Source of the DNA: Actinomycetes bacterium
Lineage (GTDB): Bacteria > Actinomycetota > Acidimicrobiia > Acidimicrobiales > JAJZXF01
Reading direction: 5' to 3'
NCBI GenBank assembly: GCA_021791755.1
Contig: JAJYWA010000002.1
Location: forward strand, 4,007 to 68,006
Length of the DNA: 64,000 nucleotides
Of the stretch, positions 9,880-42,537 are shown piece by piece. The notes under the pieces are model-generated. The model did not search any database. It saw nothing but the letters and a program-made list of their open reading frames with translations, and was not told the origin of the DNA. The translations under genes were made by a program, and so were the position numbers. Every line of letters starts with the position of its first letter. Positions within the stretch are counted from its first letter, which is position 1.

Positions 9880-9950
9880 GCGGACGTAGCTCAATGGCAG
9901 AGCCCCAGCCTTCCAAGCTGGTTATGCGGGTTCGATCCCCGTCGTCCGCT
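9880..9950 (+). tRNA. tRNA-Gly (anticodon UCC); CCA is not encoded
   Basis: The 71-nt sequence GCGGACGTAGCTCAATGGCAGAGCCCCAGCCTTCCAAGCTGGTTATGCGGGTTCGATCCCCGTCGTCCGCT folds as a cloverleaf. The acceptor stem is GCGGACG/CGTCCGC, the D stem is GCTC/GAGC, and the anticodon stem is CCAGC/GCTGG with loop CTTCCAA. The T loop is TTCGATC. A TAGGGT -10-like hexamer sits at 9865-9870. Confidence 0.9.
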
Positions 9951-16269: not shown

Positions 16270-19200
16270 CTACGGCGCAAGCGATCTTCTTCCGACACGA
16301 CAGGGGGCAAAGGCAACGTCGGGCAGCAAGCGTGGCAAGTGAGCAAACGCGTCTGGGGGGCAATGGCCTTTGAAGCTGCTGGGGGCTCTCCGGTAGAGGC
16401 CGCATCGCGGCGGGATTCGAGGCCTCGTGCGCAGGTGGGACATGAGACACGTGCTCGGAGCCATTTGTCCGTATGGACCGATCGATCCGCTGGGCCATTG
16501 GCTTTGGAGCACAGGAGACATACCTGTCGTAGCAGCGTTCGGGTATGCGCCCGGGCGCTCGGCGACGGTGCTTGCGATGCCAACCACTGGAGCATTGAGG
16601 CGCCTTCCACCAAGAGAGCCGTAGAACCTCGCATCCCCGAAGCTGAAGATGCCCCCGTCAGATGCTACGAGCCAGTAGCCCTTCCCATCTCTGGTCGGAG
16701 CGATTCCGACTATTGGAGCGTTCAGCCGCTTTGCGCCAAGAGAGCCGTAGAACTTCGCATCCCCGAAGCTGAAGATGCCCCCGTCAGATGCTACGAGCCA
16801 GTAGCCATTGCCCGACAAGGTGGGCTCTATGCCAACTATTGGAGCAGCGAGGTGCTTATGAACCGTTCCGTAGTACCCCGCAGAGCCGTAGAACTGAGCG
16901 TCACCGAAGCCGAAGATGCCGCCGTCTCTAGCTACGAGCCAGTAGCCCTTTCCATCAGGCGTGGATGCTATCCCTACTATTGGAGCTCTCAGTGCAACTC
17001 GAGCCGCAGAGCCGTAGAACCGAGCGTCGCCGAAGCTGAATACTCCCCCATCTGATGCTACGAGCCAGTAGCCCTTTCCATCAGGGGTGGATGCGATTCC
17101 CACTATCGGAGCATCGAGGTGCACTGCGCCAAGAGAGCCGTAGAACCTCGCGTCTCCGAAAGAGAAGACTCCACCATTTGAGGACGCGAGCCAGTAGCCC
17201 TTTGCATCTTCGGTCACAGCCATTCCTACTACCGGGGCCGTCAGGCGCACTGCGCCAAGCGAGCCGTGGAACTGAGCGCCGCCGAAGCTGAAGACTCCCC
17301 CGCCTGAGGAGACGAGCCAGTAGCCAGGAGCAGGAGCAGGAGCCATGTACGATAGAACGAGGTCCGACTGGCCCGCGCCGGTGTTGGCAGCGCCAGCCAA
17401 GGCGCAGAAGCCCGTAGAGACACAGGAGATGCCATTGAAGCGGTAGACGGAGCCTGGCACACGCGGCGTGAGTGAAGGTGAGTTGTCAACTGACCAGCTC
17501 GTCCCGTTCCATGTGACGACGAAACCCTCCTTCGCACCGCCGAGCACGTACTTGATGTCACCGGGCGCGTCTATATAGTTGCCGGCTGCGACGCAGAGGT
17601 TCTCTGACGCACACGAGATGTTGTAAAGCTGGTCCGAGGAGCCGGCAGAGACAGAAAGTGACGCGGAGCTGTTCAGGGACCATGTCGAGCCGTTGTAGAC
17701 GAGAGCGAGGTTTTGATCATACCCCGCGGGGTTCATGTAGTAGCCGACTGCTGCACAGAAGCTCGGGCTCGTGCACGAGACACCGTCGAGCTGGTTGTTC
17801 TGCGTCGCGGAGGTGGAAAGCGACGCTGAGCTGTTCTGAGACCACTCAGAGCCGTTGTAGGTGAGAACGAGGTTCTGGGTGTACCCCGCAGAGCTCGTAT
17901 AGTCGGTGACAGCTACGCAAAAGCTCGTGCTCGCGCACGAGACGCTCATTGGGTGGAAGTGGTGGTTCTCTTGGCCACCACCTATGCCCATGTAGCTCCA
18001 GTGCACACCGTTCCACGTCGCTACGAAGTCCTGAGACGCGTTCGGGTTGGACGGGTCGGGGTAGTACAGGCCGGCTCCGGCGCAAAAGCGCGGGCTCGTA
18101 CACGAGAGATCCGCGAACTCAGGCGCAAACTCCGGGTACCCGGGGTAAGGGGGGTTGTAGCCGGGAGTGCCCATCGGCTTCTGGCTCCAGGAGACGCCGT
18201 TCCAGGTGAGCAAGTAGTTGTAGCTGGATGATGATTGGGGGGTGCCGTTGAAACTATTGAAGAAGGTGCCAATCGCCACGCAGGAGGTCATGCTGGTACA
18301 TGACACGGCGTCGAGGTAGTTGGTGACACTAGATGACGACGATGGCGGCTCTGAGCCAGCCATCGACCAGGAAGAGCCGTTCCAGGTGAGAACGAGGTAC
18401 TCTAAGCCCAAGGATTCGTTTCGATACTCGCCGACTGCGACACAGAAGCTAGCCGACACGCACGAGATGCTCGAGATCGTGTCGATCAGCACCGTCTGCT
18501 GCGGGATCAGCACGAGATGCGCCTTCCAGGACGAGCCGTTCCAGGTGACCATGAGGACGTCACCCCCCAACCAGGCGCCAGACCAGCCGACTGCGACGCA
18601 GAAGCTCGCGCTTGAGCACCCTATGCCTTCGAGCCCACTTGACTGCCACCCAGACCCAGAGAACGACGGCGGGTAGTAGAGCTTCCACGTGCTCCCGTTC
18701 CAGGTGAGGATGAAGTTCACTTTGAGGTTCTGCGTCGAGCTGAAGAAGGTGCCGTAGCCATCCGCTACGCAGAAGCTCGCGCTTGCACACGAGATGCCTT
18801 CGTAGGAGACGCCAAGGTTGATAAGCGGCTGTTGGGGGGTGAGCGACGGGGACTTGTCGACAGTCCAGCTCGTGCCGTTCCAGGTGAAGCCCATGTTCAC
18901 AACATTTCCCTGGGAGTCCCGAATAGAGTTAACTCCGGCGCAGAAGCTCGGCGAGACACAAGAGATGGAGTCGGGAAACAACATGGAGTCCGAGCTCTCC
19001 CGCATTGTCCATCTCGTGCCGTTCCAGATCAGGACCGAGCCATAGGAATTGCCCGCTGAGTCGACAAACCCGCCATTTACCATGCAGAAGCTCGGGCTGG
19101 CGCACGAGACGCTGTAGACAGAGCTTTTCTGCCATCCAGGCTCATAGAACGGCGCGGAGTCATCGAGGGTCCAGCTGGCGCCGTTCCAGGTAATGATGTA

Positions 19201-19767
19201 GCCATTAAGGTCGACCGCTACGCAGAAGCTCGGGCTGGCGCACGAGACGCCCATGAGCGTGTCGTTGGACGACCCTGGCGGATGCGGATCTGCTGTCCAG
19301 CTCGTGCCGTTCCAAGTGAGGATCCCATTGCCAGCGTAGCCAGCGCCGACGGCTACGCAGAAGCTCGTGCTGGCGCACGAGACGCCATAGAGGAAGAAGC
19401 TCGCCAACACAGCAGGGCTAGAGGTGTCTACGATCCAGGACCTGCCGTTCCAGGTGGAGATGAGACCCGTCTCGAAACTGTCAAGAGAGTCGCCTACCGC
19501 TACGCAGAAGGTCGCAGAGACGCACGAGACGCTGTCGAGGGCACCATAGTTGTTCTCATTATACGGCTGTGGGAAGGAGTAGCTCGGAGGGTTCATGTTC
19601 GACCAGGACAAGCCTGCGCTCGTCGACCTCGGCTGATTGGGATGGCTCGCCGGTGCACCCCCATGAGCCAGCGCGGCCGCAGGGCTCTGTGAGAGCGCCA
19701 CGATCCCGAGAGCTGTGATCACAGCACGAAGCAGTGATCGGTGGTGTCGCAGGTGCACGGCTCTCAC
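16270..19767 (-). CDS. Giant secreted repeat protein 1 (1165 aa): signal peptide, about 15 Cys-pair blades (SCxSxxFCxAVG...TWNGxxW), then six ~42-aa GYWLVASDGG repeats
   Basis: The N-terminus MRAVHLRHHRSLLRAVITALGIVALSQSPAAALA is signal-like. The repeat architecture was read directly from the translation. The start overlaps the stop of the upstream giant gene by 4 bp (19764-19767). Confidence 0.8.
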   Translation of the reverse strand: MRAVHLRHHRSLLRAVITALGIVALSQSPAAALAHGGAPASHPNQPRSTSAGLSWSNMNPPSYSFPQPYNENNYGALDSVSCVSATFCVAVGDSLDSFETGLISTWNGRSWIVDTSSPAVLASFFLYGVSCASTSFCVAVGAGYAGNGILTWNGTSWTADPHPPGSSNDTLMGVSCASPSFCVAVDLNGYIITWNGASWTLDDSAPFYEPGWQKSSVYSVSCASPSFCMVNGGFVDSAGNSYGSVLIWNGTRWTMRESSDSMLFPDSISCVSPSFCAGVNSIRDSQGNVVNMGFTWNGTSWTVDKSPSLTPQQPLINLGVSYEGISCASASFCVADGYGTFFSSTQNLKVNFILTWNGSTWKLYYPPSFSGSGWQSSGLEGIGCSSASFCVAVGWSGAWLGGDVLMVTWNGSSWKAHLVLIPQQTVLIDTISSISCVSASFCVAVGEYRNESLGLEYLVLTWNGSSWSMAGSEPPSSSSSVTNYLDAVSCTSMTSCVAIGTFFNSFNGTPQSSSSYNYLLTWNGVSWSQKPMGTPGYNPPYPGYPEFAPEFADLSCTSPRFCAGAGLYYPDPSNPNASQDFVATWNGVHWSYMGIGGGQENHHFHPMSVSCASTSFCVAVTDYTSSAGYTQNLVLTYNGSEWSQNSSASLSTSATQNNQLDGVSCTSPSFCAAVGYYMNPAGYDQNLALVYNGSTWSLNSSASLSVSAGSSDQLYNISCASENLCVAAGNYIDAPGDIKYVLGGAKEGFVVTWNGTSWSVDNSPSLTPRVPGSVYRFNGISCVSTGFCALAGAANTGAGQSDLVLSYMAPAPAPGYWLVSSGGGVFSFGGAQFHGSLGAVRLTAPVVGMAVTEDAKGYWLASSNGGVFSFGDARFYGSLGAVHLDAPIVGIASTPDGKGYWLVASDGGVFSFGDARFYGSAARVALRAPIVGIASTPDGKGYWLVARDGGIFGFGDAQFYGSAGYYGTVHKHLAAPIVGIEPTLSGNGYWLVASDGGIFSFGDAKFYGSLGAKRLNAPIVGIAPTRDGKGYWLVASDGGIFSFGDARFYGSLGGRRLNAPVVGIASTVAERPGAYPNAATTGMSPVLQSQWPSGSIGPYGQMAPSTCLMSHLRTRPRIPPRCGLYRRAPSSFKGHCPPDAFAHLPRLLPDVAFAPCRVGRRSLAP
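16575..17330. repeat. Six tandem ~126-bp units encoding the GYWLVASDGGIFSFGDAxFYGS...LNAPIVGIA repeat (C-terminus of giant protein 1); boundaries approximate
   Basis: As an example, caagagagccgtagaac.tcgcatccccgaagctgaagatgcccccgtcagatgctacgagccagtagcc recurs at 16611 and 16737, a period of 126 bp. Confidence 0.8.
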
Positions 19768-22700
19768 CCTGTACCGTTCACTGCTGCAGCGCCTATGACC
19801 GGGGCGTTGAGAGACTGTCCTGCCATCGAGCCGTAGAACTTCGCATCACCGAAGTAGAATATGCCGCCGTCGGAGGCTATGAGCCAGTAGCCGCCACCAT
19901 CCACGGTGGGAGCCATGCTGACTATCGGGGCGTTCAAGTGCTTTCCCCCCATAGATCCGTAGAAGCGCGAGCCAGCGGTCCCGAAGCCGAAGATGCCCCC
20001 GTCAGAGCCTACGAGCCAGTAGCCGTGCCCGCCAGGGGTCCCAGCCATGCCGACTATCGGGGCGTTGAGAGACCTGCCACCCATGGAGCCGTAGAAGGTA
20101 GCGGTCCCGAAGCTGAAGATGCCCCCATCTGAGGCGACCAGCCAGTAGCCGTGCCCGCCAGGGGTCACAGCCATGCCGACTATCGGGGCGTTGAGAGACC
20201 TGCCACCCATGGAGCCGTAGAAGGTAGCGGTCCCGAAGCTGAAGATGCCCCCATCTGAGGCCACGAGCCAGTAGCCATGCCCGCCAGGGGTCCCAGCCAT
20301 GCCGACTACTGGGGCGCTGAGCGTGATGCTGTTCGTTCCCCCGGGAGGCTTCTGTGGGTTGATCTGGCCAGTAGAGCCGTAGAAGGACGCGCCACCGAAG
20401 CTGAGCACAGCGCCATTGGAGGCGACCTCCCAGTAGCCTTTCGAGCTCGCCCCCGAGGTTGACGTCGGTGGAGCAAGAGCCATGCCGACTACTGGGGCGC
20501 TGAGCGTGATGCTGTTCGTTCCTCCGGGAGGCTTCTGTGGGTTGATCTGGCCAGTAGAGCCCAAGAAAGGTGCGTCACCGTAGTTGAAGAGACCGCCATC
20601 AGATCCGACCTCGTAGTAGCCCTGGCCTGGCGTACAAGACGACGAGTAGATCGCACACGACATCGGCACGGTCGCAAAGCGTACGTGCCCGAAGCCCAAG
20701 GGATGACCACGCTGTAGGTAGCTGATAACTAGCTGGCTGCCTGATGGGTCGAGCTCTGGGTGCATGAGATAGTCATAACAGCTCCCCTCGGCGAGGAACG
20801 CAGGAGAGCACCCGGGAATGAGCGCTGCACCGGCCTTCGTGAACGGGCCCCAGGGTTTGGATGAGTACCGGAACTGCACCTCGCCTGAGTACGGTCCGCC
20901 AACCGGCTGGTACATCATGACGTAGACCGGCGAGCATGTCCAGCAGGTCGCGACCCTCGAGACAGAGAAGGTACCTCCCCCGACACCGGCCGAGATCGGC
21001 AAGCTGCTGGTATTGACAGGACCCAGCGAGGAAGGTGGGCCGCTCGAAACAGGTGGGCTGCTACCGCCAGCTATCTGCTCCCGTATGCCCTCTGTAGCAT
21101 AGGTGGCCGTGGAACCGGTTCCGTAGCCAAGCACCGTCTGTGGGATTGCAGCGCTGCTCGGGCCCCACGTCGTGCCGCCATCGAAGTACTGATAGTTCGC
21201 CTGACATGCCCACACGGGTCCAGAGGCACAACCAGAGGTATTCGAAAGCGCTATACGCGCGACGTAGACGAACTTCGACAGGGCGCCGACCGGTGAGTAC
21301 AGGTAGAGGTGTCCTCCATGCGGGCCGACAACGGCTCCTGACACAAAGCCGACCTGGGGTCCCGACCGGGATGCGCAAACAGCCGTGGTCGGGCTCGCAC
21401 ACGGCAGGCACTGGGCCTGGCCCGGAGACCACGGGACCGGCGTAGAGCATGGCTCGTTGGCGTTGTGCGCGTAGTAGTTGTTGAAGTTGAACAGGTTGTC
21501 ACTTAGCGAAGGGGCCGAGAGCGCCGGCGCGCTGGTCACGTTCACCGATGCGACGCCAACCGACGGGCTCGCACTCTCTAGGAGACCCCATGGGATGGCG
21601 ATCGTAGACAGGTGAGAGGCCGACCTCACGAGCAGGTCGATCCCCGAGTGGTACGGGTCCCCCGGAGGCATGATCAAAGGGGAGCACCACTGCTGGTAGT
21701 AGTCGAGAGCAGTGTTCGACAACGGCGAGGAGGTCTTCGTAGTGACACCGAAGTCTCCGTTCGGCACAGTCGTGAGCCCGGCGGACCAGCGGGGGCAGTA
21801 GTAGTGGCGGGTGGTCGCCGGAGTCGGCAGCGTATTTCTCGTAGACGAGGCACTGCTCGTAGACGAGGCGCCGGTCTCGTACACAGTGGGATAGATGGCA
21901 CCTCCGTTAGTCGGGTTCGTCCCTATCGGAAAGCTCTGCAGCGCCCCGCAGGACGGTACGGGCGCGAGGGGCTGACCTGTAGGATGCTTTGCATTCACCC
22001 TGTAGTACCCGACGTCATAGGCCGACGCGAGGCAGAAGTCCGTGGTGATAGCGGGGTAGGAACTTGGCAACATCTTGTCGTCGATGAAGTTCGCTATGTG
22101 GATCCTCGTATGATTCGTCGACGAGGTGTAGTCGAAGGAAGAAGGAGGCGAGGCGGTGCCTTCGGTACTGGTCAGCTTGCCGCCGAAGCCTGGAGCGAGC
22201 ATGCCCTCTGAAGGAAGGAACGGGCACGGCTGGCTCGCCGCTATCGGGTTCTTATTGAACCCGAACGTGTACGGACATGTCCAGGTCGGGGATTGCGCTG
22301 TGCAGGAGCCGGAGGTGAGACCACTGCTCACACCGTTGATGTTGTCGGTGAGGCACGGAGTAGGAGACGAGGCGCCAATCGTAGCGAGCGGCCACTGAAC
22401 AGCGGCGGTGCCGCTCGGTGTGAAGTGGCTCGCAGAGGAGCTGGACGACACAGCATCCGCGATAGCGGTGTCACAGAAGACCCACAGGTCCGCGTTGATG
22501 AAGTTGGACGAGGAGGAGCCAGACGAGGAGGCAGGCGCCGAGACCTGCGTGCTCATGCCGCAGTCGCGCGACACGGAGCGGTAGCAGTCGCCTACGGTTG
22601 GCTTGAATATGTTCGGTGAGCTGTAGCTGTAGCTGTACTTGAGCGTCGGGCCACCGTCGCACGCATCAGCGCTGTTGCGGTACCGATTCGTCGGATGCCT

Positions 22701-24803
22701 GATCAAGGTGGCCTCGACCGGGAGGGGTCCCGTGCCGTAGGCAGCAGCCTCAACTGCAACAGGCGTCACGGTGTACGGGCTTGATCCAGCAGGCGAGTAG
22801 CCATTCGCGTTCAAGGCGACGACGCTCACATCGTAGGTGACCGCGCTCTCGAGGTTGCTGATCACGTACTGAACGCCTGGCGGGTCCACTCCTGGAGAGC
22901 TCGCACACGAAGCCGTGGACAGCTCACACGTCGGAGAGCCGACTATCGCCGCATTGACGCCAGATGAAGACGCCATGATGCCCCCGGCCTCACACGTAGC
23001 AGTCGAGGCCGCACACCCTACGCTCGTGAGCTCGAGCACCGACGAGGCCTGCTCGCTCACCGGCTCGTTGCCCCAGAGCGCACCCGAGTCCGCGGTGCCT
23101 ATGAGCACCGGGGCTATCGCCTTCGCGCCGAGAACCGAGAAGCCGGCCGCGTAGCAGACTTGAGCGCTCGGACACGATATGCCATATAACAGCACGTGCG
23201 ATCCGGAAGGCCCTGTGGGAAGCGGCCCATCCTCGGACCAGGTTCCACCAGATGACATGCTCCAGGCTACAGAGCTGAGACCACCGAGGTAGTTGGCGCC
23301 TACCGCTGCGCACGCAGTCGTCGAGGCGCACGACACCCCTGTCGGCAACGCCAAGGATGCGGGGTTCAAGACGTAAGGCCCCATTGGAGCAGAGTGAAAG
23401 CTTCCACCTCCGTCTTCGGTGCTGACAGCGACCGGCGCAAGCCCTGTTGCGCCAAGAGACAGCTCTGCTTTCACCCCTACGAATGTGCAAGCCGCTTGTG
23501 AGACACACGAGATCGCATCTCCGGAGAGAACAGGCATGTAGGCGCTCATGACGCCGAAGGCCGGCTGGGCGACGGTCTGTTGCCAGGTGGCTCCCGAGTT
23601 GGACGAGGTTATGACCTCTGATTGGCCAAGAGAGCGCATGCCTACCGCAAAGCAGGTGGTCGTCGCGTACACGCACGAGATGCCGCCCAAGTCCTCGAAT
23701 CCTTGCGGCAGCGCTGAAGAAGACCAGGTTGCGCCGGAGTCGGTCGTGTAGAAGAGCGCCGGCGCGCTAGCCAAGCTGAGAACGCCGGGAATGCCTCCAA
23801 CGACACAGGTGGAAGCTGCGACACACGAGACGCTCGTCAAGATGACCCCTGGCGCACGAGGCATGCTGAGCGTCGTCCAGGTCTCGCCTGCGTTATCAGT
23901 CAAGACCGCGTACGGCTCGAAGCTGATGCCAGAGCTCGAAGAGATCGATGCCGTGGCTCCGACGGCTATGCACGAGGTCGCGGTGGGACATGACACGTGG
24001 AGGATGAAGCTGTCTTGTGCTCCGGTGAGCGATAGTCCCCATGCGCCGGTGACAGCGGGGCTCGTGGACGCAGACATCGGGTACACCAGGCAGTGCCCGA
24101 GCCAGGAGATGAGACATCCGATGCTCGCAGAGGCGCCCTGTGCGCCGCTCGTGGTAGTCACCGGGGTAGCTACGGCCTCATAGCCGGTGATAGACGATCC
24201 TCCATCGTTTGCGGGGGGATCGAATCTCACCGCTATATCAGGGCCATCGGTGGACGCTCTCACGTTCCGTGGAGCGCTCGGAGCGCCTTGAGCAGAGGAG
24301 ACATAGGCCTGAGAGGAGGGAGACGACCATGGGCCTGCTCCTGAAGCGCTCAGCGCCTGCACCTCGAAGGTGTAGGCGACAGAGTTGCTCAAGCCCTGGA
24401 CGACAGTCGTCGTAGGAGGAGGAGAACCGGTGACCAAGAGCCCGGTGCACGAGGAGGAACATGCAGGAGTCGGCTCGATCCTGTAGCCAGTGACCGGAGA
24501 GGAGCCGGCAGAAGCCTGCGCCCAGGTAATGGTCGCAGAGCCGAAAGAGCCGGTGGCCTGGACGTCGAGCGGGGCCCCTGGCGGCTCGGTGGTCGTAGAG
24601 TGAGAGAGAACCCTGGTGCGCCTCTTGGAAGAAAGAGCCTGCGTCGTGTGCTGGGCTGCTCCAGCGAGAGCGGGCATGAGCACTAGAACAGAGACTAACG
24701 AGACCCCTAGGGCTCTAAGGAGCCAGGCGCATCGAAGCCACGAGCCACGACGCCTTGATCTCTCTCTCTCTCTCTCGGCTAGCCATGCTGCGAACGGTAG
24801 CAC
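19764..24803 (-). CDS. Giant secreted repeat protein 2 (about 1680 aa from GTG 24803): signal peptide, two FN3-like domains, a seven-blade BNR/Asp-box propeller with Cys pairs, an unassigned Cys-rich ~650-aa central region, and six C-terminal GYWLVASDGG repeats
   Basis: FN3-like segments are PGAPLDVQATGSFGSATITW...YTFEVQALSASGAGPWS and PSAPRNVRAS...GGSSITGYEAV. Asp-box motifs are TDNAGETW, TDSGATW, SNSGATW, SSGGTW and TADSGALW, each paired with (S/G)CxxxxxC. The maximal ORF extends to 25187 but would overlap the divergent methyltransferase. GTG at 24803 gives (M)LPFAAWLAERERERSRRRGSWLRCAWLLRALGVSLVSVLVLMPALAGA, which is signal-like. The start is uncertain. Confidence 0.75.
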   Translation of the reverse strand: MLPFAAWLAERERERSRRRGSWLRCAWLLRALGVSLVSVLVLMPALAGAAQHTTQALSSKRRTRVLSHSTTTEPPGAPLDVQATGSFGSATITWAQASAGSSPVTGYRIEPTPACSSSCTGLLVTGSPPPTTTVVQGLSNSVAYTFEVQALSASGAGPWSSPSSQAYVSSAQGAPSAPRNVRASTDGPDIAVRFDPPANDGGSSITGYEAVATPVTTTSGAQGASASIGCLISWLGHCLVYPMSASTSPAVTGAWGLSLTGAQDSFILHVSCPTATSCIAVGATASISSSSGISFEPYAVLTDNAGETWTTLSMPRAPGVILTSVSCVAASTCVVGGIPGVLSLASAPALFYTTDSGATWSSSALPQGFEDLGGISCVYATTTCFAVGMRSLGQSEVITSSNSGATWQQTVAQPAFGVMSAYMPVLSGDAISCVSQAACTFVGVKAELSLGATGLAPVAVSTEDGGGSFHSAPMGPYVLNPASLALPTGVSCASTTACAAVGANYLGGLSSVAWSMSSGGTWSEDGPLPTGPSGSHVLLYGISCPSAQVCYAAGFSVLGAKAIAPVLIGTADSGALWGNEPVSEQASSVLELTSVGCAASTATCEAGGIMASSSGVNAAIVGSPTCELSTASCASSPGVDPPGVQYVISNLESAVTYDVSVVALNANGYSPAGSSPYTVTPVAVEAAAYGTGPLPVEATLIRHPTNRYRNSADACDGGPTLKYSYSYSSPNIFKPTVGDCYRSVSRDCGMSTQVSAPASSSGSSSSNFINADLWVFCDTAIADAVSSSSSASHFTPSGTAAVQWPLATIGASSPTPCLTDNINGVSSGLTSGSCTAQSPTWTCPYTFGFNKNPIAASQPCPFLPSEGMLAPGFGGKLTSTEGTASPPSSFDYTSSTNHTRIHIANFIDDKMLPSSYPAITTDFCLASAYDVGYYRVNAKHPTGQPLAPVPSCGALQSFPIGTNPTNGGAIYPTVYETGASSTSSASSTRNTLPTPATTRHYYCPRWSAGLTTVPNGDFGVTTKTSSPLSNTALDYYQQWCSPLIMPPGDPYHSGIDLLVRSASHLSTIAIPWGLLESASPSVGVASVNVTSAPALSAPSLSDNLFNFNNYYAHNANEPCSTPVPWSPGQAQCLPCASPTTAVCASRSGPQVGFVSGAVVGPHGGHLYLYSPVGALSKFVYVARIALSNTSGCASGPVWACQANYQYFDGGTTWGPSSAAIPQTVLGYGTGSTATYATEGIREQIAGGSSPPVSSGPPSSLGPVNTSSLPISAGVGGGTFSVSRVATCWTCSPVYVMMYQPVGGPYSGEVQFRYSSKPWGPFTKAGAALIPGCSPAFLAEGSCYDYLMHPELDPSGSQLVISYLQRGHPLGFGHVRFATVPMSCAIYSSSCTPGQGYYEVGSDGGLFNYGDAPFLGSTGQINPQKPPGGTNSITLSAPVVGMALAPPTSTSGASSKGYWEVASNGAVLSFGGASFYGSTGQINPQKPPGGTNSITLSAPVVGMAGTPGGHGYWLVASDGGIFSFGTATFYGSMGGRSLNAPIVGMAVTPGGHGYWLVASDGGIFSFGTATFYGSMGGRSLNAPIVGMAGTPGGHGYWLVGSDGGIFGFGTAGSRFYGSMGGKHLNAPIVSMAPTVDGGGYWLIASDGGIFYFGDAKFYGSMAGQSLNAPVIGAAAVNGTG
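19767..20630. repeat. Six tandem units (126-190 bp) encoding the C-terminal GYW(L/E)VASDGG repeats of giant protein 2; these include near-identical copies
   Basis: A 93-nt identical stretch, agccatgccgactatcggggcgttgagagacctgccacccatggagccgtagaaggtagcggtcccgaagctgaagatgcccccatctgaggc, occurs at 20043-20135 and 20169-20261. A second near-identical pair lies at about 20296-20380 and 20482-20565. Confidence 0.85.
24759..24776. repeat. (TC)9 dinucleotide microsatellite, (GA)9 on the coding strand
   Basis: The tract tctctctctctctctctc at 24759-24776 encodes ERERER in the presumed signal-peptide n-region of giant protein 2. Confidence 0.9.
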
Positions 24804-24908
24804 GCCGATCAGGCATTGCGCGGCGCGGGTGCGCGGGCCTTGCGCGGCGCGGGCGGGCCTTGCGCGGCACTGGGCGCGGGCAACGCTGCCGGGCGTATTG
24901 TCTTGGCA

Positions 24909-25547
24909 ATGATCGCAGATCCACAAGTCGAGCAGTACGCGCACGAGCACACGACCGCAGAGCCGGCGCACCTGGGTGCTGTAGCCGCGGAGACCATCTC
25001 GACGCTTGACAACCCTGGGATGATGGTCGGTCTGCTGGAGGGCAGGCTCCTCGAGATGCTCGCCTTCGCTACCCAGGCGCGTCGCATCCTCGAGATCGGC
25101 GCCTTCAGCGGCTACTCCGCTCTCGCGATGGCCGCCGGCATGCCATCGGGGGGGACGATCACGACCTGCGAGATCGACCCGCGCCACGCTGACGCAACCC
25201 GGCGCAACATCGCCGCGAGCCCTTACGCCGGCTGCATCGAGGTACGGCTCGGAGATGCGCTCGAGACCCTTGATGGCCTCGAAGGACCTTTCGACCTCGT
25301 CTTCATCGACGCGGACAAGCGCAACTATCTCTCCTACTACGAGGCCGCTCTCAGGCTAGTCGCCGCTACCGGGCTCATCGTCGTGGACAACACCCTCTGG
25401 AGCGGCCGGGTTCTCGACGAGAACAGCGCTGACGTCGACACGGCGGCATTACGCGCCTTCAACGATCACGTGAGGGCTGATCCACGGGTCATCTGCGTCC
25501 AGCTCACCGTGCGCGACGGAGTGACGATCATCCGACGGGCAGGTTGA
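24909..25547 (+). CDS. Class I SAM-dependent O-methyltransferase (caffeoyl-CoA OMT-like family)
   Basis: The product reads MIADPQVEQYAHEHT...ILEIGAFSGYSALAMA...FDLVFIDADKRNYLSYYE...GLIVVDNTLWSGRV. The maximal ORF starts at 24816, but the ATG at 24909 fits the family N-terminus. Confidence 0.85.
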   Translation: MIADPQVEQYAHEHTTAEPAHLGAVAAETISTLDNPGMMVGLLEGRLLEMLAFATQARRILEIGAFSGYSALAMAAGMPSGGTITTCEIDPRHADATRRNIAASPYAGCIEVRLGDALETLDGLEGPFDLVFIDADKRNYLSYYEAALRLVAATGLIVVDNTLWSGRVLDENSADVDTAALRAFNDHVRADPRVICVQLTVRDGVTIIRRAG

Positions 25548-25554
25548 GCGTCCC

Positions 25555-28068
25555 GTGCTCGACTACCACCTGCACCTGTGGCCCCACGGTTCGCGGGCCA
25601 CTACCATCACCGATGACGACCTGACGGCGTGGTGCGAGGCAGCCGCATCCAGAGGAGTTACAGAGATCGCCATCACCGAGCACCTGTTTCGCTTCGTCCA
25701 AGCAAGGCAGCTGTTGGACGGCTTCTGGAACGATGAAGATTCTCCGGAGCTTCGAGCCAACATGGCCGCTTACTTCGCCGAGCACGCCACTGCAGACCTC
25801 GACACCTACGTGACGACGCTGCAGCGGGCCAGGGATGCAGGGCTCCCGATACGGGTGGGCCTAGAGGTGGACTACTACCGCGGCCGGATGAACGAGGTCG
25901 CCCACCTCTTGGAAGGCTACCCGTTCGACGTCATTCTGGGCTCGATCCACTGGCTGGGGGCGTGGCGCTTCGACGACGTAGATGACCCGGCTTCGATCGC
26001 GGAGTGGAGCGAGCGAGACGTAGACCGCGTCTGGGCCGAGTACGCGTCAGCGGTCGTCGAGCTCGCGGAGTCACGAACCTGTGACGTCCTGGCCCACCCC
26101 GACTTGGTCAAGGTGATCAACAGGATCGCAACGTCTCCCGAGGAGCTGTGGGGACGTACCGCTTCTGCGCTCGCATCGGCGCAAATGGCAGCCGAGGTCT
26201 CCTCCGCGGGCTGGAGAAAACCCGTGGGCGAACAGTACGCGGCGCGCGGGTTCATTGACCTGCTCTATGGCCACGGCGTCCCGGTTACCATGGCGTCTGA
26301 TGCCCATCGTCTCGAAGACGTTGCCTACAGGTTCGATGATCTCGCACTCATCCTCGAGGACGTCGGCTACGACGCGACATGTGGGTTCGAGGCGAGGTCG
26401 CGACGGTCCGAGCCGTTGCGCGCCGCCACGGGAAGCAGGCGGGTCGAGGACGCCACGGCGACGGCGATGAGGGGACTGCCAGGTCACTCCAGGTCGGCAG
26501 GGAGAGGCGACCGGCTCCCTGGCGCTCCTTCGTTCTTCGATACGGACCAGGTCGCTCAGGTAACGACCGACGATGCCGACACCCACATCCAACGACTGAC
26601 GGCGTCCTGGGCCGTGCTGGCCGACCTGTCCTTCGCTGACCTGGTCCTTCTCATCCCGCTGGTCGGCGTGGACGATCTACGCTCGTTCACGGTCGCCGCG
26701 CAGATACGTCCGAACACCAGCCAGACGCTTTTCCAAGAGGATCTCGTCGGCAGCGTGCTGGAAGGAAAGAGCGCATCGCTTCCCGCCGCCGCCTGGCGCG
26801 ACGCCCACATAACTCGGGGCGAGGTCAGTCTGGAGGGACTCGACGAGCCAGTCAGGATGAGCTGCGTACCCGTCCGCAGCGGGAACCAGGTACTTGCCGT
26901 TCTGGGCAAGCTGACACCCCTTCATACGGCGCGCAGGCGATCGGGTGAACTGGAGCGCGTCTACGTGCAGGTGGCGGACAGGCTCTCCAACATGATCGCC
27001 GAAGGCGTCTTTCCGTACCCGGGAGAAGAGATAGGCCTCGGAGCCGAGGCGCCGCGAGTAGGAGACGGGCTCGTCCTCCTCAACCCGGCCGGCGAGGTGG
27101 AGAACGTGTCTCCCAACGTCATCAACGCGCTCCACAGAATGGGCATCTCGACCAACGCCGTCGGCAAGCGGCTCTCTGACATAGGGATGAAGGAGACCGC
27201 CGTCGAGCGGGCCCTCAGCCTACGATTCCCGGTCGTCGAGGAGGTCGAGTGCCGGCCTGACGTCACCGTCTTGATCCAGTGCACGCCGCTCCTCGCGAGT
27301 GGCGAGCTAACCGGAGGCATCGTGCTGATGCGCGACGTGACCGACCTCCGCCGCCTCGGCCGGCTCCTGCTGTCGAAGGACGCCGCGATCCGCGAGGTGC
27401 ACCACCGCGTGAAGAACAACCTCCAGACGATATCCGCCCTGCTTCGCCTGCAGGCCAGGCGGCTCGCAGGCAGGGAAGGCCGGCTGGCCTTGGAGGAGGC
27501 CGAGCGCCGGATACGATCGATCGCGATCGTCCACGAGGTTCTGTCTCGAGACCCCGGTGACCAGGTCGCATTCGACCAGATCGTGCGTTACCTCGTCCGA
27601 ATGGCAGAGGACTCCGTTATCAGCTCCGGCGGCGTCGAGGTCCTCGTCTCGGGAGATGCGGGCGAGGTTGCCGGAGACATCGCCACGCCGCTCGCGCTTG
27701 CATTGGCCGAGTTGCTGCAGAACGCGGTCGAGCATGCGTTCGAACACCCTTCGGGAACGAATGAACGCCCTTCTGGAACGAACATCTCGCGCCGCGGCGC
27801 TGCGGGCCACATCTGGGTGACATTGGCCAACGACGGGCGCACCATCAAGATCGAGATACGCGACGACGGCTGCGGCATCCCGGACGACCTTGACATCGCC
27901 ACGACTTCAAGCCTTGGCCTGTCCATCGTCCGCGACCTCATCACCAGTCAACTCAACGGCGCCATTGCGATGTACCCCGTCGTGGACCACCACGGTACGG
28001 TGATTCGAGTCGAGGTGCCGACAGGTTCGCCCCGGACAGACCTGCTCGGTTTCAGCGACTTCGCCTGA
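25555..28068 (+). CDS. pdtaS: Single 837-aa ORF: a PHP-family (HisJ-like) phosphoesterase domain followed by a complete PdtaS-type sensor histidine kinase
   Basis: The N-terminal ~280 aa carry DYHLHLWPHG...ITEH...GLEVDYY...GSIHW...AHPDL...SDAH, the PHP metal ligands. The remainder aligns by eye along its length to Mycobacterium tuberculosis PdtaS. Matching segments are WAVLADLSFADLVLL, RRRSGELERVY, PRVGDG, ISKDAAIREVHHRVKNNLQTISALLRLQARR, LLQNAVEHAF and SLGLSIVR. The start is GTG at 25555. An in-frame internal M (MRGLPGH) lies at the junction. Confidence 0.8.
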   Translation: MLDYHLHLWPHGSRATTITDDDLTAWCEAAASRGVTEIAITEHLFRFVQARQLLDGFWNDEDSPELRANMAAYFAEHATADLDTYVTTLQRARDAGLPIRVGLEVDYYRGRMNEVAHLLEGYPFDVILGSIHWLGAWRFDDVDDPASIAEWSERDVDRVWAEYASAVVELAESRTCDVLAHPDLVKVINRIATSPEELWGRTASALASAQMAAEVSSAGWRKPVGEQYAARGFIDLLYGHGVPVTMASDAHRLEDVAYRFDDLALILEDVGYDATCGFEARSRRSEPLRAATGSRRVEDATATAMRGLPGHSRSAGRGDRLPGAPSFFDTDQVAQVTTDDADTHIQRLTASWAVLADLSFADLVLLIPLVGVDDLRSFTVAAQIRPNTSQTLFQEDLVGSVLEGKSASLPAAAWRDAHITRGEVSLEGLDEPVRMSCVPVRSGNQVLAVLGKLTPLHTARRRSGELERVYVQVADRLSNMIAEGVFPYPGEEIGLGAEAPRVGDGLVLLNPAGEVENVSPNVINALHRMGISTNAVGKRLSDIGMKETAVERALSLRFPVVEEVECRPDVTVLIQCTPLLASGELTGGIVLMRDVTDLRRLGRLLLSKDAAIREVHHRVKNNLQTISALLRLQARRLAGREGRLALEEAERRIRSIAIVHEVLSRDPGDQVAFDQIVRYLVRMAEDSVISSGGVEVLVSGDAGEVAGDIATPLALALAELLQNAVEHAFEHPSGTNERPSGTNISRRGAAGHIWVTLANDGRTIKIEIRDDGCGIPDDLDIATTSSLGLSIVRDLITSQLNGAIAMYPVVDHHGTVIRVEVPTGSPRTDLLGFSDFA

Positions 28069-31226: not shown

Positions 31227-32372
31227 CTATGCTTCGGGCCTATCCGTCCGACCTCGGCCTGCGCAGAGCGCGGAGGCGACCTCGGAAGCGATCTGCAGAT
31301 CTTCACGGGCCCGGACGACGAACGTCCGCACCGTCGCCGCTCTCGAGCTGATCTCTCCGTCGGGCGCCACACGAGCGTTCCGGTCGTCGTCCAGGCCGAC
31401 GCCGAGGAAGGAAAGACCGGCCGCCGTTCTCTGGCGGATCGAGCTTGACCCCTCGCCCACTCCCCCGGTGAACACGAGCACGTCGATGCCGTTGAGCGCC
31501 GCAGTCATGGCGGCGATCTGACCGCGTAGCCTGTGCAGGTAGACCCCTACCGCCAGCGCCGCAGCCTCGTCGCCGTGTATCTCGGCGTCGAGGACCGCAC
31601 GCATGTCGGCGCTCCCCGCCAGCCCCATCAGCCCGGACCTACGCTCCAGGGCCTGAGCAAGCTCGCCTGCCAACATACCAGCGTGCTCCTCGAGCCAGAG
31701 CACGAGCCCCGGGTCCACACTGCCCGAGCGCGTCGCCATCACCAGCCCGTCAAGGGGCGTGAAGCCCATCGTGGTGTCGACCGACACCCCGCGGTCCACC
31801 GCGGCGAGCGAGGCCCCTGCTCCCAAATGGCATGTGACTACCCGGAGCACGTCGGGCGGGCTACCGGCGAGCTCGCAGGCTCTTTTCGTTGCCCACGCAT
31901 GGGAGAGGCCGTGAAACCCGAAACGACGCAAGGGCCAGCGTGCACGCCACTCGGCAGGCAGGGCATAGGTTGCCGCATGCGCAGGGAGCCTCGAGTGAAA
32001 CGCAGTGTCGAAGCAGGCGACCGCAGGAACACCGGGGAGCAGGCGGCGCGCGGAATCGACGGCGGAAAGCGCCGGCGGCAGGTGGACCGGGGCGAGATCA
32101 ACGAGAGCTCCGAGGCTCTCGCGCACCTGGTCGTCCAGCACCACCGGCTCGCGGAACGCGGGGCCGCCATGGACGATCCGATGGCCGCAAGCATCGACCG
32201 GTCCAGCACGCTCGACGAGCCTCTCGATCGCCTTCCCACACGCCTCCAGGCTCAGCGCCCGACCTGACGCCCGCAGCTCCTCGGCGTCTACGACAGCGCC
32301 GCCATCTACAGACTGCTCGACGACGGATAGCTTGAGGCTAGAGGAGCCTACATTGACCGTGAGAACCCGCAT
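31227..32372 (-). CDS. ackA: Acetate kinase
   Basis: 381 aa. Motifs seen are MRVLTVNVGSSSLKLSVV, GHRIVHGG, FDTAFH, RRFGFHGLSH and VVTCHLGAGAS. Confidence 0.9.
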   Translation of the reverse strand: MRVLTVNVGSSSLKLSVVEQSVDGGAVVDAEELRASGRALSLEACGKAIERLVERAGPVDACGHRIVHGGPAFREPVVLDDQVRESLGALVDLAPVHLPPALSAVDSARRLLPGVPAVACFDTAFHSRLPAHAATYALPAEWRARWPLRRFGFHGLSHAWATKRACELAGSPPDVLRVVTCHLGAGASLAAVDRGVSVDTTMGFTPLDGLVMATRSGSVDPGLVLWLEEHAGMLAGELAQALERRSGLMGLAGSADMRAVLDAEIHGDEAAALAVGVYLHRLRGQIAAMTAALNGIDVLVFTGGVGEGSSSIRQRTAAGLSFLGVGLDDDRNARVAPDGEISSRAATVRTFVVRAREDLQIASEVASALCAGRGRTDRPEA

Positions 32373-32376
32373 CTGG

Positions 32377-34828
32377 CTATTTGCGCCAGCTCCAGGTCCA
32401 GTCTCTGATCGCCGGAGGATCCTCCCCTTCGGCTCGGGTGTAGGCCCGAATTCTCAGCCGCTCGTCGAACATGCGCTGGCGCAGCTCGGCCGCTCTCGAG
32501 CCGAGCCCCGGCGCCCGGTCGATGACGTCCATCACGAGGTGAAAGCGGTCGAGGTCGTTCAGCATCACCATGTCGAACGGCGTCGTGGTGGTGCCTTCCT
32601 CCTTGTACCCACGCACGTGCAGGTTCGCGTGGCAGTTGCGCCGGTACATGAGGCGGTGGACGAGCCACGGATACCCGTGGAACGCAAAGATGATCGGCCT
32701 GTCAACGGTGAAGATCGCGTCCAGCTCCGCGTCCGACAGCCCATGCGGGTGCTCGTCGCTCGGCTCCAGCCGCATCAGGTCGATCACGTTGACGAAGCGA
32801 ACCTTCACATCTGGCAGCTCGCGGCGCATGATGTCAGCCGCCGCGAGGGCCTCCAGAGTGGGAACGTCGCCGCAGCATGCGAGCACGACGTCGGGATCCC
32901 CTCCATCGTTGGATGCCCACTCCCATATCCCGAGGCCCCGGGTGCAGTGCAGGATCGCATCGTCGATCGCGAGGTAGTTTAGGGCCGGCTGCTTGCCTGC
33001 CACCACCACGTTCACGTAGTTCCGGCTGCGCAAGCAGTGGTCCATCACCGACAGCAGGCAGTTGGCATCCGGCGGCAGGTACACTCGAACCACCTGCGCC
33101 TTCTTGTTGACCACATGGTCAATAAACCCCGGATCCTGGTGCGAGAAGCCGTTGTGGTCCTGGCGCCACACGTGGGAGGTCAGCAGGTAGTTGAGCGACG
33201 CGATCGGCTGGCGCCACGAGACATCGCTGCCTGTCGTCTTCAGCCACTTCGCATGCTGATTGAACATGGAGTCGACCAGGTGAACGAAGGCTTCGTAGCA
33301 GTTGAACAGACCGTGGCGACCAGTCAGCAGGTAGCCTTCCAGCCATCCCTCGCACTGGTGCTCGGAGAGCATCTCGATCACCCGACCCGCCGGTGCGAGG
33401 TGCTCATCGGTCTCGATGCGACTTGCGTCCCACTGCCGGTCGGTGACATCGAAGACCGCCTGCAGGCGATTGGAGACCGTCTCGTCCGGGCCGAACAGTC
33501 GAAAGTTGCGCGGGTTGTTGCTGATCACGTCACGCAGGTAGGCTCCAAGGACCTTGGTGGCCTCGGAGAAGGAGCTCGCCGGGTCGCTCACCTCCACTGC
33601 ATGCTCACGAAAGTCCGGAAGCGCGAGCGGCTCCAGCAGCAGCCCGCCGTTCGCGTGGCTATTTGCGCTCATACGCCGCTCGCCCTTAGGCGCCAGCTGC
33701 GCCAGCTCGGCCCTCAGGGCGCCTCTTGCGTCGAAGAGCTCTTCAGGTCGGTAGCTGCGCAGCCAGGACTCCAACGCCGCCAGATGCTCTGGGTTGGAGC
33801 GCACCTCGGCAAGCGGGACCTGATGAGAGCGCCACGTCCCCTCGGCCGCCAAGCCGTCGACGCTCTTAGGGCCGGTCCAGCCCTTCGGGCTTCGGAGCAC
33901 GATCATCGGCCATGCAGGCCTCGTTGGCGTACCTTGCCCGGCGCTTCGGGCGTGCCTCTGGATGGATGCTATCTCCACGAGCGCCTTTTCTAGGACGGTG
34001 GACATTTGCTGGTGCATAGCGATGGGATCGTCGCCCGACACCCAGTAAACCTTATGACCATAGCCTTCTAGAAGCTTCGTGAGCTCGGCATCGCCGATAC
34101 GAGCGAGCACGGCCGGGTTCGCGATCTTGTACCCGTTCAAGTGCAGGATCGGCAGCACGGCTCCATCGGTCACCGGGTTGACGAACTTGTTCGAGTGCCA
34201 GCTCGTCGCCAGCGGACCGGTCTCGGCCTCCCCGTCGCCGACGACGCAGCACACCAGTAGCTCGGGGTTGTCGAGAGCAGCGCCGTACGCGTGCGACAGA
34301 GCGTACCCAAGCTCGCCGCCTTCATGTATCGAGCCGGGCGTCTCCGGCGCAACATGAGTAAGGTATGCCCCCTGGAAACGAGAACTGGCGGAACAGCCGC
34401 CGGAGACCGTCCAAATCGGCGGATATGTGGGGATAGACCTCACTATAGGTTCCTTCGAGGTACGCGTTAGCCACCGCCGCAGGCCCACCATGCCCAGGGC
34501 CGAACACGTAGATCGCGTCCTTCTCCCAGATGCCTTCACACAGCGCTCGGTTCATATGCGCGTAGATGAAGTTCAGCCCGGGCGTCGTGCCCCAGTGGCC
34601 AAGCAGGCGAGGCTTGACATGCTCGGGCCTCAGCGGCTCTCGGAGGAGCGGGTTGTCGAGCAGGTAGATCTGACCAACTGACAGGTAGTTGGCAGCCCTC
34701 CAATACGCGTCCAACAGCCCCAGATCCTCGTCGGAGAGCTGGCCGGGGTTCGCCTCGGATGCCAGGTCGGGATGTTCCGCCCTCTGGCTCTCGCTCACCC
34801 TCTGGCTCTCGCTCACCGCCGTGATCAT
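32377..34828 (-). pseudogene. xfp: Phosphoketolase (Xfp) interrupted by a single +1 frameshift near 34360
   Basis: The N-terminal frame (34828 to 34322) ends ...[23 protein letters not shown]. The second frame (34539 to 32377) carries ...[51 protein letters not shown]... through to the C-terminus. Deleting one T from the coding-strand ccTTact (plus-strand aa at 34360-34361) restores [14 protein letters not shown]. There are no other disruptions across about 815 codons. Confidence 0.8.
34782..34817. repeat. Perfect 18-bp tandem duplication (ctctggctctcgctcacc x2) at the 5' end of xfp, encoding SESQR(V/A) twice
   Basis: The units span 34782-34799 and 34800-34817. Confidence 0.9.
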
Positions 34829-38774: not shown

Positions 38775-39631
38775 TCCCAGACCACCTGCACAACATTGTC
38801 CAGGTCTTGGCCGAACAGCCGGCGACCCGTCGAGCGAAACCACTCCACATCGCCTGAAGAGTAATAGACCTGCGCGCCAACGCCTGACGCGGGGGCAGAC
38901 GCACCCGAGCTCTCGAGGATCCGCTTCACCTCGAACGCGGTCTCGTCCGCCGAAGACACCAACAGCACGCTCCTGCCCATAACGTCGCCGATCGTCCTTG
39001 CGAGAAAAGGATAGTGCGTGCAAGCAAGCAGCAGGCTGTCGATCCCTTTGCCGCGCAACGGCGACAGCAGGCGCTCTGCAAGCACGTGCACTTGGTCGCT
39101 GTCGGTCTCACCGCGCTCCACGAACTCCACGAACCCAGGACACGCGGCACAGAAGAGCTTCGTCTGAGGAGACACAGTGGCACTGGCGCGCTGGTAGGCG
39201 CCAGAGCTGATCGTACCCGTCGTGCCGATCACGCCGACGCGCCCCTTGCTGGTTGCGGCGGCGACTGCCCTGACGCCAGGTTCGATGACTCCTATGACGG
39301 GCACCGGCGCCTCGGCAACGAGCTCGTCGAGCGCGGCGGCGGACGCCGTGTTGCATGCCACCACGACCATCTTTACGCCCACCTCGTCCACCAAGAACCG
39401 CGTGATCTGATGAGCGAAACCAGCCACCTCCTCGAGCGGCCGGGGGCCGTAGGGGTACCGCCCCGTGTCGCCGACATAGGCAAAGCTCTCATGGGGCAGT
39501 AGGTCGACAAGGGCCCGCAGGACGCTCAGGCCGCCGAAGCCGCTGTCGAAGACACCGATGGGTTTCGAGGCTTGATCGCTCTGTACGCCAGCTCCTATTC
39601 GCTCACCATTAGCCCCACGACCTCTAGTCAC
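38771..39631 (-). CDS. murI: Glutamate racemase
   Basis: The motifs are IGVFDSGFGGLSVLRAL...YVGDTGRYPYGPR...VVACNTASA...LACTHYPFL. I chose the GTG at 39631 because the maximal ORF (to 39724) overlaps the upstream membrane-protein gene by about 100 bp. The start is uncertain. Confidence 0.85.
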   Translation of the reverse strand: MTRGRGANGERIGAGVQSDQASKPIGVFDSGFGGLSVLRALVDLLPHESFAYVGDTGRYPYGPRPLEEVAGFAHQITRFLVDEVGVKMVVVACNTASAAALDELVAEAPVPVIGVIEPGVRAVAAATSKGRVGVIGTTGTISSGAYQRASATVSPQTKLFCAACPGFVEFVERGETDSDQVHVLAERLLSPLRGKGIDSLLLACTHYPFLARTIGDVMGRSVLLVSSADETAFEVKRILESSGASAPASGVGAQVYYSSGDVEWFRSTGRRLFGQDLDNVVQVVWE

Positions 39632-42440: not shown

Positions 42441-42537
42441 GCCAATCACGGCTCCAAGCGTATTGCGTGACGACACCGTCCGTCGTTCACGCCCCGCTCC
42501 CTGGTCGTGTGCGCCGGCAGCCGCTTCCAAGCGAGGC

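Follow-up and report, generated by a model that had tools for sequence, protein, structure and literature searches.

An overlapping gene pair for predicted secreted multi-propeller proteins, with a length-polymorphic (GA)n tract at its 5′ end, in an Acidimicrobiales-like actinobacterium

Layout of the locus and its repeat modules

A 64-kb stretch of DNA from an actinobacterium (contig JAJYWA010000002.1; referred to here, at its full length, as the window) carries two overlapping minus-strand genes, P2 and, downstream of it, P1, which encode large predicted secreted proteins built mainly from β-propeller blades. The open reading frames (ORFs) span 16270-19767 (P1, 1165 aa) and 19764-25187 (P2, before choice of a start), and the 4-bp overlap that had been described from the letters of the DNA alone (the sequence-only reading) is present at 19764-19767, where the P2 frame ends in GGG TGA and the P1 GTG overlaps it to give GTGA. 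The sole in-frame start near or upstream of the P2 signal-peptide core is GTG 24803, which yields a coding sequence of 1679 aa (19764-24803, stop included); the same gene is found in three other assemblies. P1 is read here from GTG 19767; the public annotation begins the gene at the following GTG (19758), 5 nt past the P2 stop, and the two genes are tightly coupled under either choice.

P2 begins with a Sec-type signal peptide (24654-24803), assigned by inspection as is that of P1, with an n-region ending in RSRRRGSWLR, the h-region CAWLLRALGVSLVSVLVLMPALA, and cleavage near ALAGA/AQ. Two FN3 domains follow (24159-24587), as the sequence-only reading had it; Pfam fn3 (PF00041) matches two stretches (E 1.8e-17; 63.8 bits against a cut-off of 25), and a sequence search of the Protein Data Bank (PDB) with P2 returned FN3 matches only (titin and the FN3 pairs of receptor-type tyrosine-protein phosphatase (RPTP) delta). 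The next module is a seven-blade propeller of the Asp-box type with a C-x5/6-C pair in each blade (22884-24056), recognized from a listing of motifs and from sub-threshold BNR-type Pfam matches. An Asp-box had been claimed for all seven blades; the seven Cys-pair blades are there, with five good Asp-boxes, one degenerate box (TEDGGGSF), and a last blade that has none. An FN3-like spacer (22758-22883; sub-threshold Pfam FN3_DSCAM-DSCAML_C, E 0.0021) leads into a 710-aa centre (20628-22757), and the protein closes with a six-repeat propeller (19767-20627; repeats of 42-60 aa), visible in the translation and as a period of 126 in Tandem Repeats Finder (TRF), whose P1 counterpart is modelled as four-stranded blades.

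In P1 the signal peptide (19666-19767; …RHHRSLLRAVITALGIVALSQSPAAALA/HG), which AlphaFold models as a helix at residues 13-25 with a low predicted local distance difference test score (pLDDT), is followed by fourteen blades (17254-19554). These are marked by 14 SC-x5-C-x-A/V-G units and by 13 copies of (W/Y)NGxxW that follow them; the earlier count of about 15 was thus one too many, while its TWNGxxW-type motif with a retained Cys pair stands. The AlphaFold2 model (87 sequences; mean pLDDT 78) is all-beta, with four strands in each blade (pLDDT mostly 80-95) and in each of the six 42-aa repeats of the C-terminal propeller (16570-17253; pLDDT 90-98). Foldseek matched this model to multi-propeller proteins of a generic kind, with about 10% identity (E down to 1e-16), among them the double seven-bladed Aip1 (1nr0) and GH74; a PDB sequence search with P1 gave no match. 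Given these double-propeller matches and the presence of seven blades in most homologues, the 14 blades would form two seven-bladed propellers.

Beyond the last repeat P1 continues for 99 codons (16273-16569), a Pro/Arg/Ala-rich extension that is modelled as disordered (pLDDT 25-34). It lacks the GC3 signature of coding DNA, with a GC content at the three codon positions of 0.61/0.66/0.66 where the body of P1 has 0.51/0.55/0.74, and the homologues inspected end directly after the sixth repeat, with no tail of this type; the extension is probably read-through of non-coding DNA or the result of a lost stop codon. The WNG motif of P1 usually takes the form W-N-G-[ST]-x-W, which creates an N-x-S/T sequon in 8 of the 13 copies (residues 106-758, approximately 17490-19450); the sequon-bearing motif is probably structural.

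Both Cys of the blade, and the Gly after them, form its invariant columns across 87 homologues. Every mature segment of P1 and P2 has an even number of Cys, and in the P1 model the pair flanks the turn between the first and second strands of a blade, so placed that the Cys-x5/6-Cys pair is probably a disulfide staple at this hairpin. By hhalign at the level of single blades, the WNG type is homologous to the Asp-box/Cys type (probability 96%, E 2.7e-9), with W-N-G-x-x-W sitting on the position of D-x-G-x-T-W; the idea that WNG is a variant of the Asp-box is borne out. In P1 and most of its relatives the Asp-box S-x-D-x-G-x-T-W is replaced by x-T-W-N-G-x-S-W. These relatives are numerous: the P1 homologue search returned more than 3100 matches, nearly all unnamed, the few names given being those of Acidimicrobiales metagenome-assembled genomes (MAGs), and the usual relative is a protein of about 650-700 aa with a signal peptide, seven blades, and six repeats. 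In searches of P1 and P2 against Pfam and NCBIfam, FN3 alone scored above threshold; neither the blades nor the centre nor the C-terminal repeats had a match that reached it. P1 has no BNR-type Pfam match, BNR_2 reaches 13.1 bits in P2 (cut-off 31.4), and the sub-threshold matches in P2 and its relatives are to BNR, BNR_2, Sortilin-Vps10, and PSII_BNR. The blades had been called unassignable to a named family, which holds for curated models at threshold; they are nonetheless not rare. A full-text literature search for the repeat motifs gave no result.

The six C-terminal repeats reported as common to P1 and P2 are seen in both translations. They are of the type GYWLVASDGGIFSFGDAxFYGS..LNAPIVG, 42 aa long and in six copies in P1, and the domain stays close to 6 × 42 residues (about 251 aa) in most homologues checked; in other homologues it comes after TIG, FN3, He_PIG, and Big_3_5 domains. 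Within one protein the six repeats are often nearly identical (homologues P0001 and P0005-P0007), which suggests either concerted evolution by gene conversion or six equivalent binding sites. A third gene of the window (region 41037-42599 and 39624-40889, both minus strand) encodes three GYWLVASDGGIFSFG repeats between a membrane anchor and a weak SGNH/DUF459-like domain that follows them, and adjoins a gene for a GT87 glycosyltransferase. Three such blades are too few to close a six-bladed propeller, which hints at dimerization. SGNH/esterase content, considered for P1 and P2 as well, was found in neither and is confined to this third gene. The domain company of the C-terminal module, together with the SGNH/DUF459-like and GT87 context, leads us to propose, with low confidence, that the module binds a glycan of the cell envelope.

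P2-like proteins were found in three lineages only: that of the window, a second represented by P0122 (L004-L006), and an 'Actinomycetes bacterium' MAG (L007). The L007 protein is 37% identical to P2 and the other orthologue about 45% (central domain); a scan of Joint Genome Institute (JGI) metagenomes for P2-like centres found none. Every P2-like gene is followed by a propeller gene with a 4-bp overlap (including those of L005/L006 and L007), so that the two do co-occur as the sequence-only reading anticipated; in the other two lineages, however, the partner is a 660-aa Asp-box/Cys-blade protein and not of the 14-blade WNG type. An apparent loss of the partner gene in L004 was discarded, since L004 and L005 are collinear in their DNA and gene calling had simply passed the gene over. 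P1-like genes elsewhere have neighbours other than P2-like genes. The close P1 homologue P0002 is preceded, again with a 4-bp overlap, by a gene for an unrelated 326-aa protein (L001 148-1128) without a signal peptide, which indicates that P1-type genes are not generally paired with P2-type genes.

Long ORFs made of repeats could be assembly chimeras produced by repeat collapse or mis-joining. The number of C-terminal repeats does vary between assemblies by steps of 42 aa: L002 lacks one 126-bp unit of P2 that the window has, and this difference sits where two neighbouring P2 copies are 97% identical in DNA (window 19800-20321). Such steps are also seen among cluster members (P0121 and P0123), with 1595 versus 1637 aa here and 524/566/608 aa in the L007 lineage. 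The repeat-number difference in P2 could equally reflect short-read collapse or real copy-number variation. Wholesale collapse was nevertheless rejected: the remaining blades and repeats have a DNA identity of only 60-87% between copies, and both genes recur at 99.6-99.9% identity in three other assemblies of the population, giving four assemblies from different samples that agree on both ORFs. Orthologous gene pairs exist in two further lineages, and AlphaFold gives P1 regular propellers; a chimeric origin is regarded as highly improbable.

The centre of P2

The 710-aa centre (20628-22757, minus strand) is rich in Cys, Ser, and Pro and contains 24 Cys. It had been described as an unassigned region of about 650 aa; the lack of a Pfam match stands, whereas the length is greater and profile comparison places the C-terminal third as a remote relative of the DUF4185/GH183 glycosidases. 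DUF4185 had been among the families proposed for a search, and the outcome is positive for the centre, at the level of remote homology only.

A word-indexed homologue search with the centre and its alignment gave nothing at E ≤ 1e-3, probably because it was swamped by low-complexity words. An exhaustive HMMER search of 1.84 billion representatives recovered the centre itself and four relatives. Two of these (P0122 and P0123) derive from P2-like proteins; another, P0125 (316 aa; phmmer E 2.7e-4 in this library), matches Pfam DUF4185 (PF13810) with 50.4 bits against a cut-off of 39.5. P0125 and three related proteins from plasmid records (one with DUF4185 above the Pfam cut-off, one below it, and one without a Pfam match) served as a DUF4185-like reference set, the profile of which matches 4HBS (1.8e-25) and the GH183 endo-arabinanase 8HHV (6.4e-16). 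When the group of P2 centres, with P0125 left out, was compared with this set by hhalign, residues 477-684 aligned with a probability of 96.8% (E 2.3e-10). The LWVFCDT of the centre falls co-linearly, but weakly, on the LW[IV]FSDT of the reference set. The profile of the centre searched against the PDB gave only a weak GH117/GH32-type blade match (3R4Y, E 0.016), and a tblastn search of phages with a DUF4185 relative gave no result.

The published catalytic pairs of the family are Asp33/Asp51 in EndoMA1 (PMC10509167) and D39/D56 in Rv3707c (PMC10115798). In the reference set the Asp of LW[IV]FSDT lies 17-18 residues after an earlier conserved Asp, which is the spacing of these pairs. The Asp of FCDT in the centre, conserved in the three P2 orthologues, falls on the FSDT Asp; the Asp of RDCG is a candidate nucleophile. 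GH183/DUF4185 proteins are common in Actinomycetota, often as part of multidomain proteins (PMC10115798). By these profile and motif relations the centre appears to be a very divergent, insertion-rich member of the five-bladed DUF4185/GH183 superfold, and its substrate is probably different from D-arabinan.

P1 and P2 might instead be purely structural or adhesive (S-layer-like or adhesin-like), with the DUF4185-like centre a degenerate, non-catalytic scaffold or binding domain, and several observations weigh in this direction and against a glycosidase-like centre. The centre is too divergent for Pfam DUF4185, and matches no Pfam family, PF13810 included, even at E ≤ 10. Long Ser/Thr/Pro/Cys-rich insertions interrupt it, its N-terminal half aligns weakly (hhalign probability 3-43%), and its AlphaFold model (5 sequences; mean pLDDT 32.7) is unusable and leaves the fold unverified. 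Its nucleophile Asp is not securely aligned: the RDCG Asp stands 23-31 residues from the FCDT Asp, not 17-18, and is left unaligned by hhalign. Relatives of P1 join their blades with adhesin-typical TIG, FN3, and Ig-like domains, and the sole PDB match to the profile of the C-terminal repeats, weak and sub-threshold (E 0.0028, 20 bits), is the YVTN propeller 1L0Q of an archaeal surface-layer protein. Set against this, the FxDT and HPELDP...SY motifs are strictly conserved in the P2 orthologues and common to bona fide DUF4185-type proteins, and the RDCG Asp is conserved in all three orthologues. We consider a purely structural or adhesive role unlikely, and retain the GH183-like reading of the centre in what follows.

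The (GA)n tract and the genomic context

The 5′ coding end of P2 contains a (GA)9 microsatellite (24759-24776, minus strand) downstream of the start codons and ahead of the signal-peptide core, a candidate frameshift switch that is a new finding and had no place in the sequence-only reading. It is the sole simple sequence repeat (SSR) in the window, where shuffled sequences give an expectation of 0. At n=9, GTG 24803 is in frame with P2, and an alternative ATG start (24784-24786) is out of frame.

Comparison of assemblies revealed a 4-nt difference in the tract: the window and L003 have nine units, L002 and L012 eleven, the longer allele having been assembled independently from two samples. 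At n=11 the signal-peptide frame is closed by a stop directly before the tract and has its first start beyond the hydrophobic core. The intermediate length, n=10, was not observed; by frame arithmetic it would bring the ATG at 24786 into frame. The orthologues have (AG)7 and (GA)9 at the same site, each with an upstream ATG that is one repeat unit out of frame, and their loci have no other SSR or hardly any. The tract has been kept across three lineages with a protein identity of only about 37-45% in the central domain. A JGI metagenome scan for the (GA)n locus gave no result. Conservation of the tract, a length polymorphism that changes the frame, and its position in the signal-peptide region together point to a slipped-strand phase switch, and suggest phase variation of P2.

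The tract may, on the other hand, be no switch at all, its length differences being assembly or sequencing noise or neutral polymorphism, and P2 being translated independently of it (for example from a leaderless or non-canonical start). Counting for this and against a switch, the evidence for variation consists of two lengths among only four assemblies, which are short-read consensus sequences of different samples and not of one clone; the L004-L007 lineages offer a GTG where the hydrophobic core begins, which could serve as a repeat-independent start; and (GA)n codes for an innocuous ERER stretch in the n-region. These points are met by the occurrence of a perfect dinucleotide tract of 7-11 units, with none expected, at one position in three such distant lineages, by the independent recovery of n=11, and by the lack, in the n=11 allele of the window lineage, of any internal start that would keep the hydrophobic core, in addition to the stop directly upstream. 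The absence of switching is a possibility to be taken seriously, if a lesser one, and the interpretation below retains the tract as a candidate phase switch.

Upstream of P2, three imperfect direct repeats of about 20 bp (CCGCGCAAGGCCCGC...; 24812-24881, no strand assigned; TRF period 20, 3.1 copies) lie within the divergent region of about 110 bp between P2 and an O-methyltransferase gene (ORF 24816-25547, Pfam match), and may be a candidate operator or promoter element. The neighbourhood is not a glycan-utilization locus: it comprises this divergent O-methyltransferase gene, a PHP-GAF-HisKA_2 kinase gene, a convergent Lipoprotein_15 gene, an ECF sigma factor, and an ABC ATPase. The kinase (25555-28068, plus strand) is a histidine kinase with an N-terminal PHP (phosphoesterase) domain, a PdtaS-type GAF domain, HisKA_2, and HATPase; its gene runs divergently to the P2 operon, from which the methyltransferase gene separates it. 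Paired genes for a phosphoketolase (XFP) and an acetate kinase (31227-34539, minus strand) provide ordinary housekeeping context, and an Rfam scan of the window found one tRNA only (9880-9950, plus strand).

Proposed working and comparison with known systems

As a whole, the data are best explained by a two-gene operon for secreted multi-propeller proteins, with a GH183-like centre in P2 and (GA)n gating of its expression, to which we assign a probability of roughly 0.55. P1 and P2 are probably associated with the cell surface of their host, an uncultivated Acidimicrobiales-like actinobacterium. The observations of the sequence-only reading are confirmed, and its interpretation is supported in part; its proposal of a dedicated machine, for binding or for enzymatic work outside the cell, is plausible. 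Two further points tell against the explanation preferred here: promoter and terminator scans stayed at chance level with no Shine-Dalgarno sequence evident, and the case for a docking role consists of domain co-occurrence.

In the proposed scheme, P2 would be gated by the (GA)n tract lying between its GTG and ATG starts, which are in different frames, and the signal-peptide core; nine units would place the GTG in frame, ten the ATG, and with eleven no upstream start would be in frame, a slipped-strand phase switch of the opa/lic1 type. P1 would be translated by termination-reinitiation at the GTGA junction. Outside the cell, the variable loops of the Cys-stapled propellers would bind substrate, the P2 centre would cleave or bind a glycan, with an acid/base-type Asp motif (FxDT) retained, and the C-terminal propeller may be a shared module for docking these proteins to a glycan of the cell envelope or for binding a repeated glycan.

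Three proposals of novelty are advanced jointly and tentatively, as we hold it rather doubtful that they apply together: that the Cys-stapled WNG blade is an undescribed domain family of actinobacterial surface proteins; that the propeller of six 42-aa repeats is an undescribed family acting as a general envelope docking or lectin module; and that a dinucleotide contingency switch with two alternative starts gates secretion of P2, and with it the coupled partner, in three lineages. No description of a dinucleotide contingency switch in Acidimicrobiia-like actinobacteria was found.

Thousands of hypothetical proteins of Acidimicrobiales share the Cys-stapled blade and the 42-aa propeller without a curated model, and a definition of both would give an annotation to much of the secretome predicted for this class, which is abundant in the environment and mostly uncultivated. 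With the P2 centre, the DUF4185/GH183 superfamily would gain a very divergent form, rich in insertions, that likely acts on another substrate. The most interesting element is the conserved and polymorphic (GA)n tract, which is directly testable on existing metagenomic reads; if it does switch, contingency-locus phase variation of surface proteins would be found outside host-adapted pathogens.

The modules are unannotated variants of known folds (the Asp-box propeller, a DUF4185/GH183-like domain, and a YVTN-like propeller), and the blade family is abundant while the P2 architecture is rare. With the BNR/Asp-box propellers (sialidase, GH74, Sortilin-Vps10, and Ycf48/PSII_BNR) the blades share a length of about 50 aa, four strands, and seven-fold arrangement and, in P2 and the partner proteins of its relatives, S-x-D-x-G-x-T-W between the third and fourth strands. 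They differ in the invariant SC-x5-C-xAVG pair of every blade and, in P1 and most of its relatives, in the replaced Asp (T-W-N-G-x-S-W), and no curated model reaches them at threshold. The C-terminal repeats resemble the YVTN repeats of the Methanosarcina mazei surface layer protein (1L0Q) in their length of about 40-42 aa, a P-x-G-[IV]-A-x-[ST]-P-D-G-K...Y motif, and an extracellular, surface-protein setting. In contrast, there are six blades instead of seven, the core GYWLVASDGGIFSFGDAxFYGS is unlike the YVTN motif, the copies inside one protein are nearly identical, and neither Pfam nor NCBIfam matches them.

The centre of P2 is linked to the GH183/DUF4185 enzymes (EndoMA1 8HHV, Rv3707c, and DgGH4185, with the related BACOVA_04882 4HBS) by profile homology over its C-terminal 200 aa or so and by the LWxFxDT and HPE(L/V)D...SY motifs. 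It is set apart by a length of about 710 aa against about 330, by long Cys/Ser/Pro-rich insertions, by its escape from the Pfam model, by the insecure alignment of its nucleophile, and by its restriction to three lineages.

Translational phase variation is established in Neisseria opa, through CTCTT coding repeats in the signal-peptide region, and in Haemophilus influenzae lic1, through CAAT repeats with alternative ATGs. The P2 tract resembles these loci in its place within the gene of a surface protein, after the start codon or codons and before the signal peptide or body, in having alternative starts in different frames that would allow more than two states, and in its length polymorphism within a population. 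It differs in its dinucleotide unit, in that its switching is a prediction from assemblies, and in its host, which is a free-living, uncultivated, high-GC actinobacterium and not a host-adapted pathogen.

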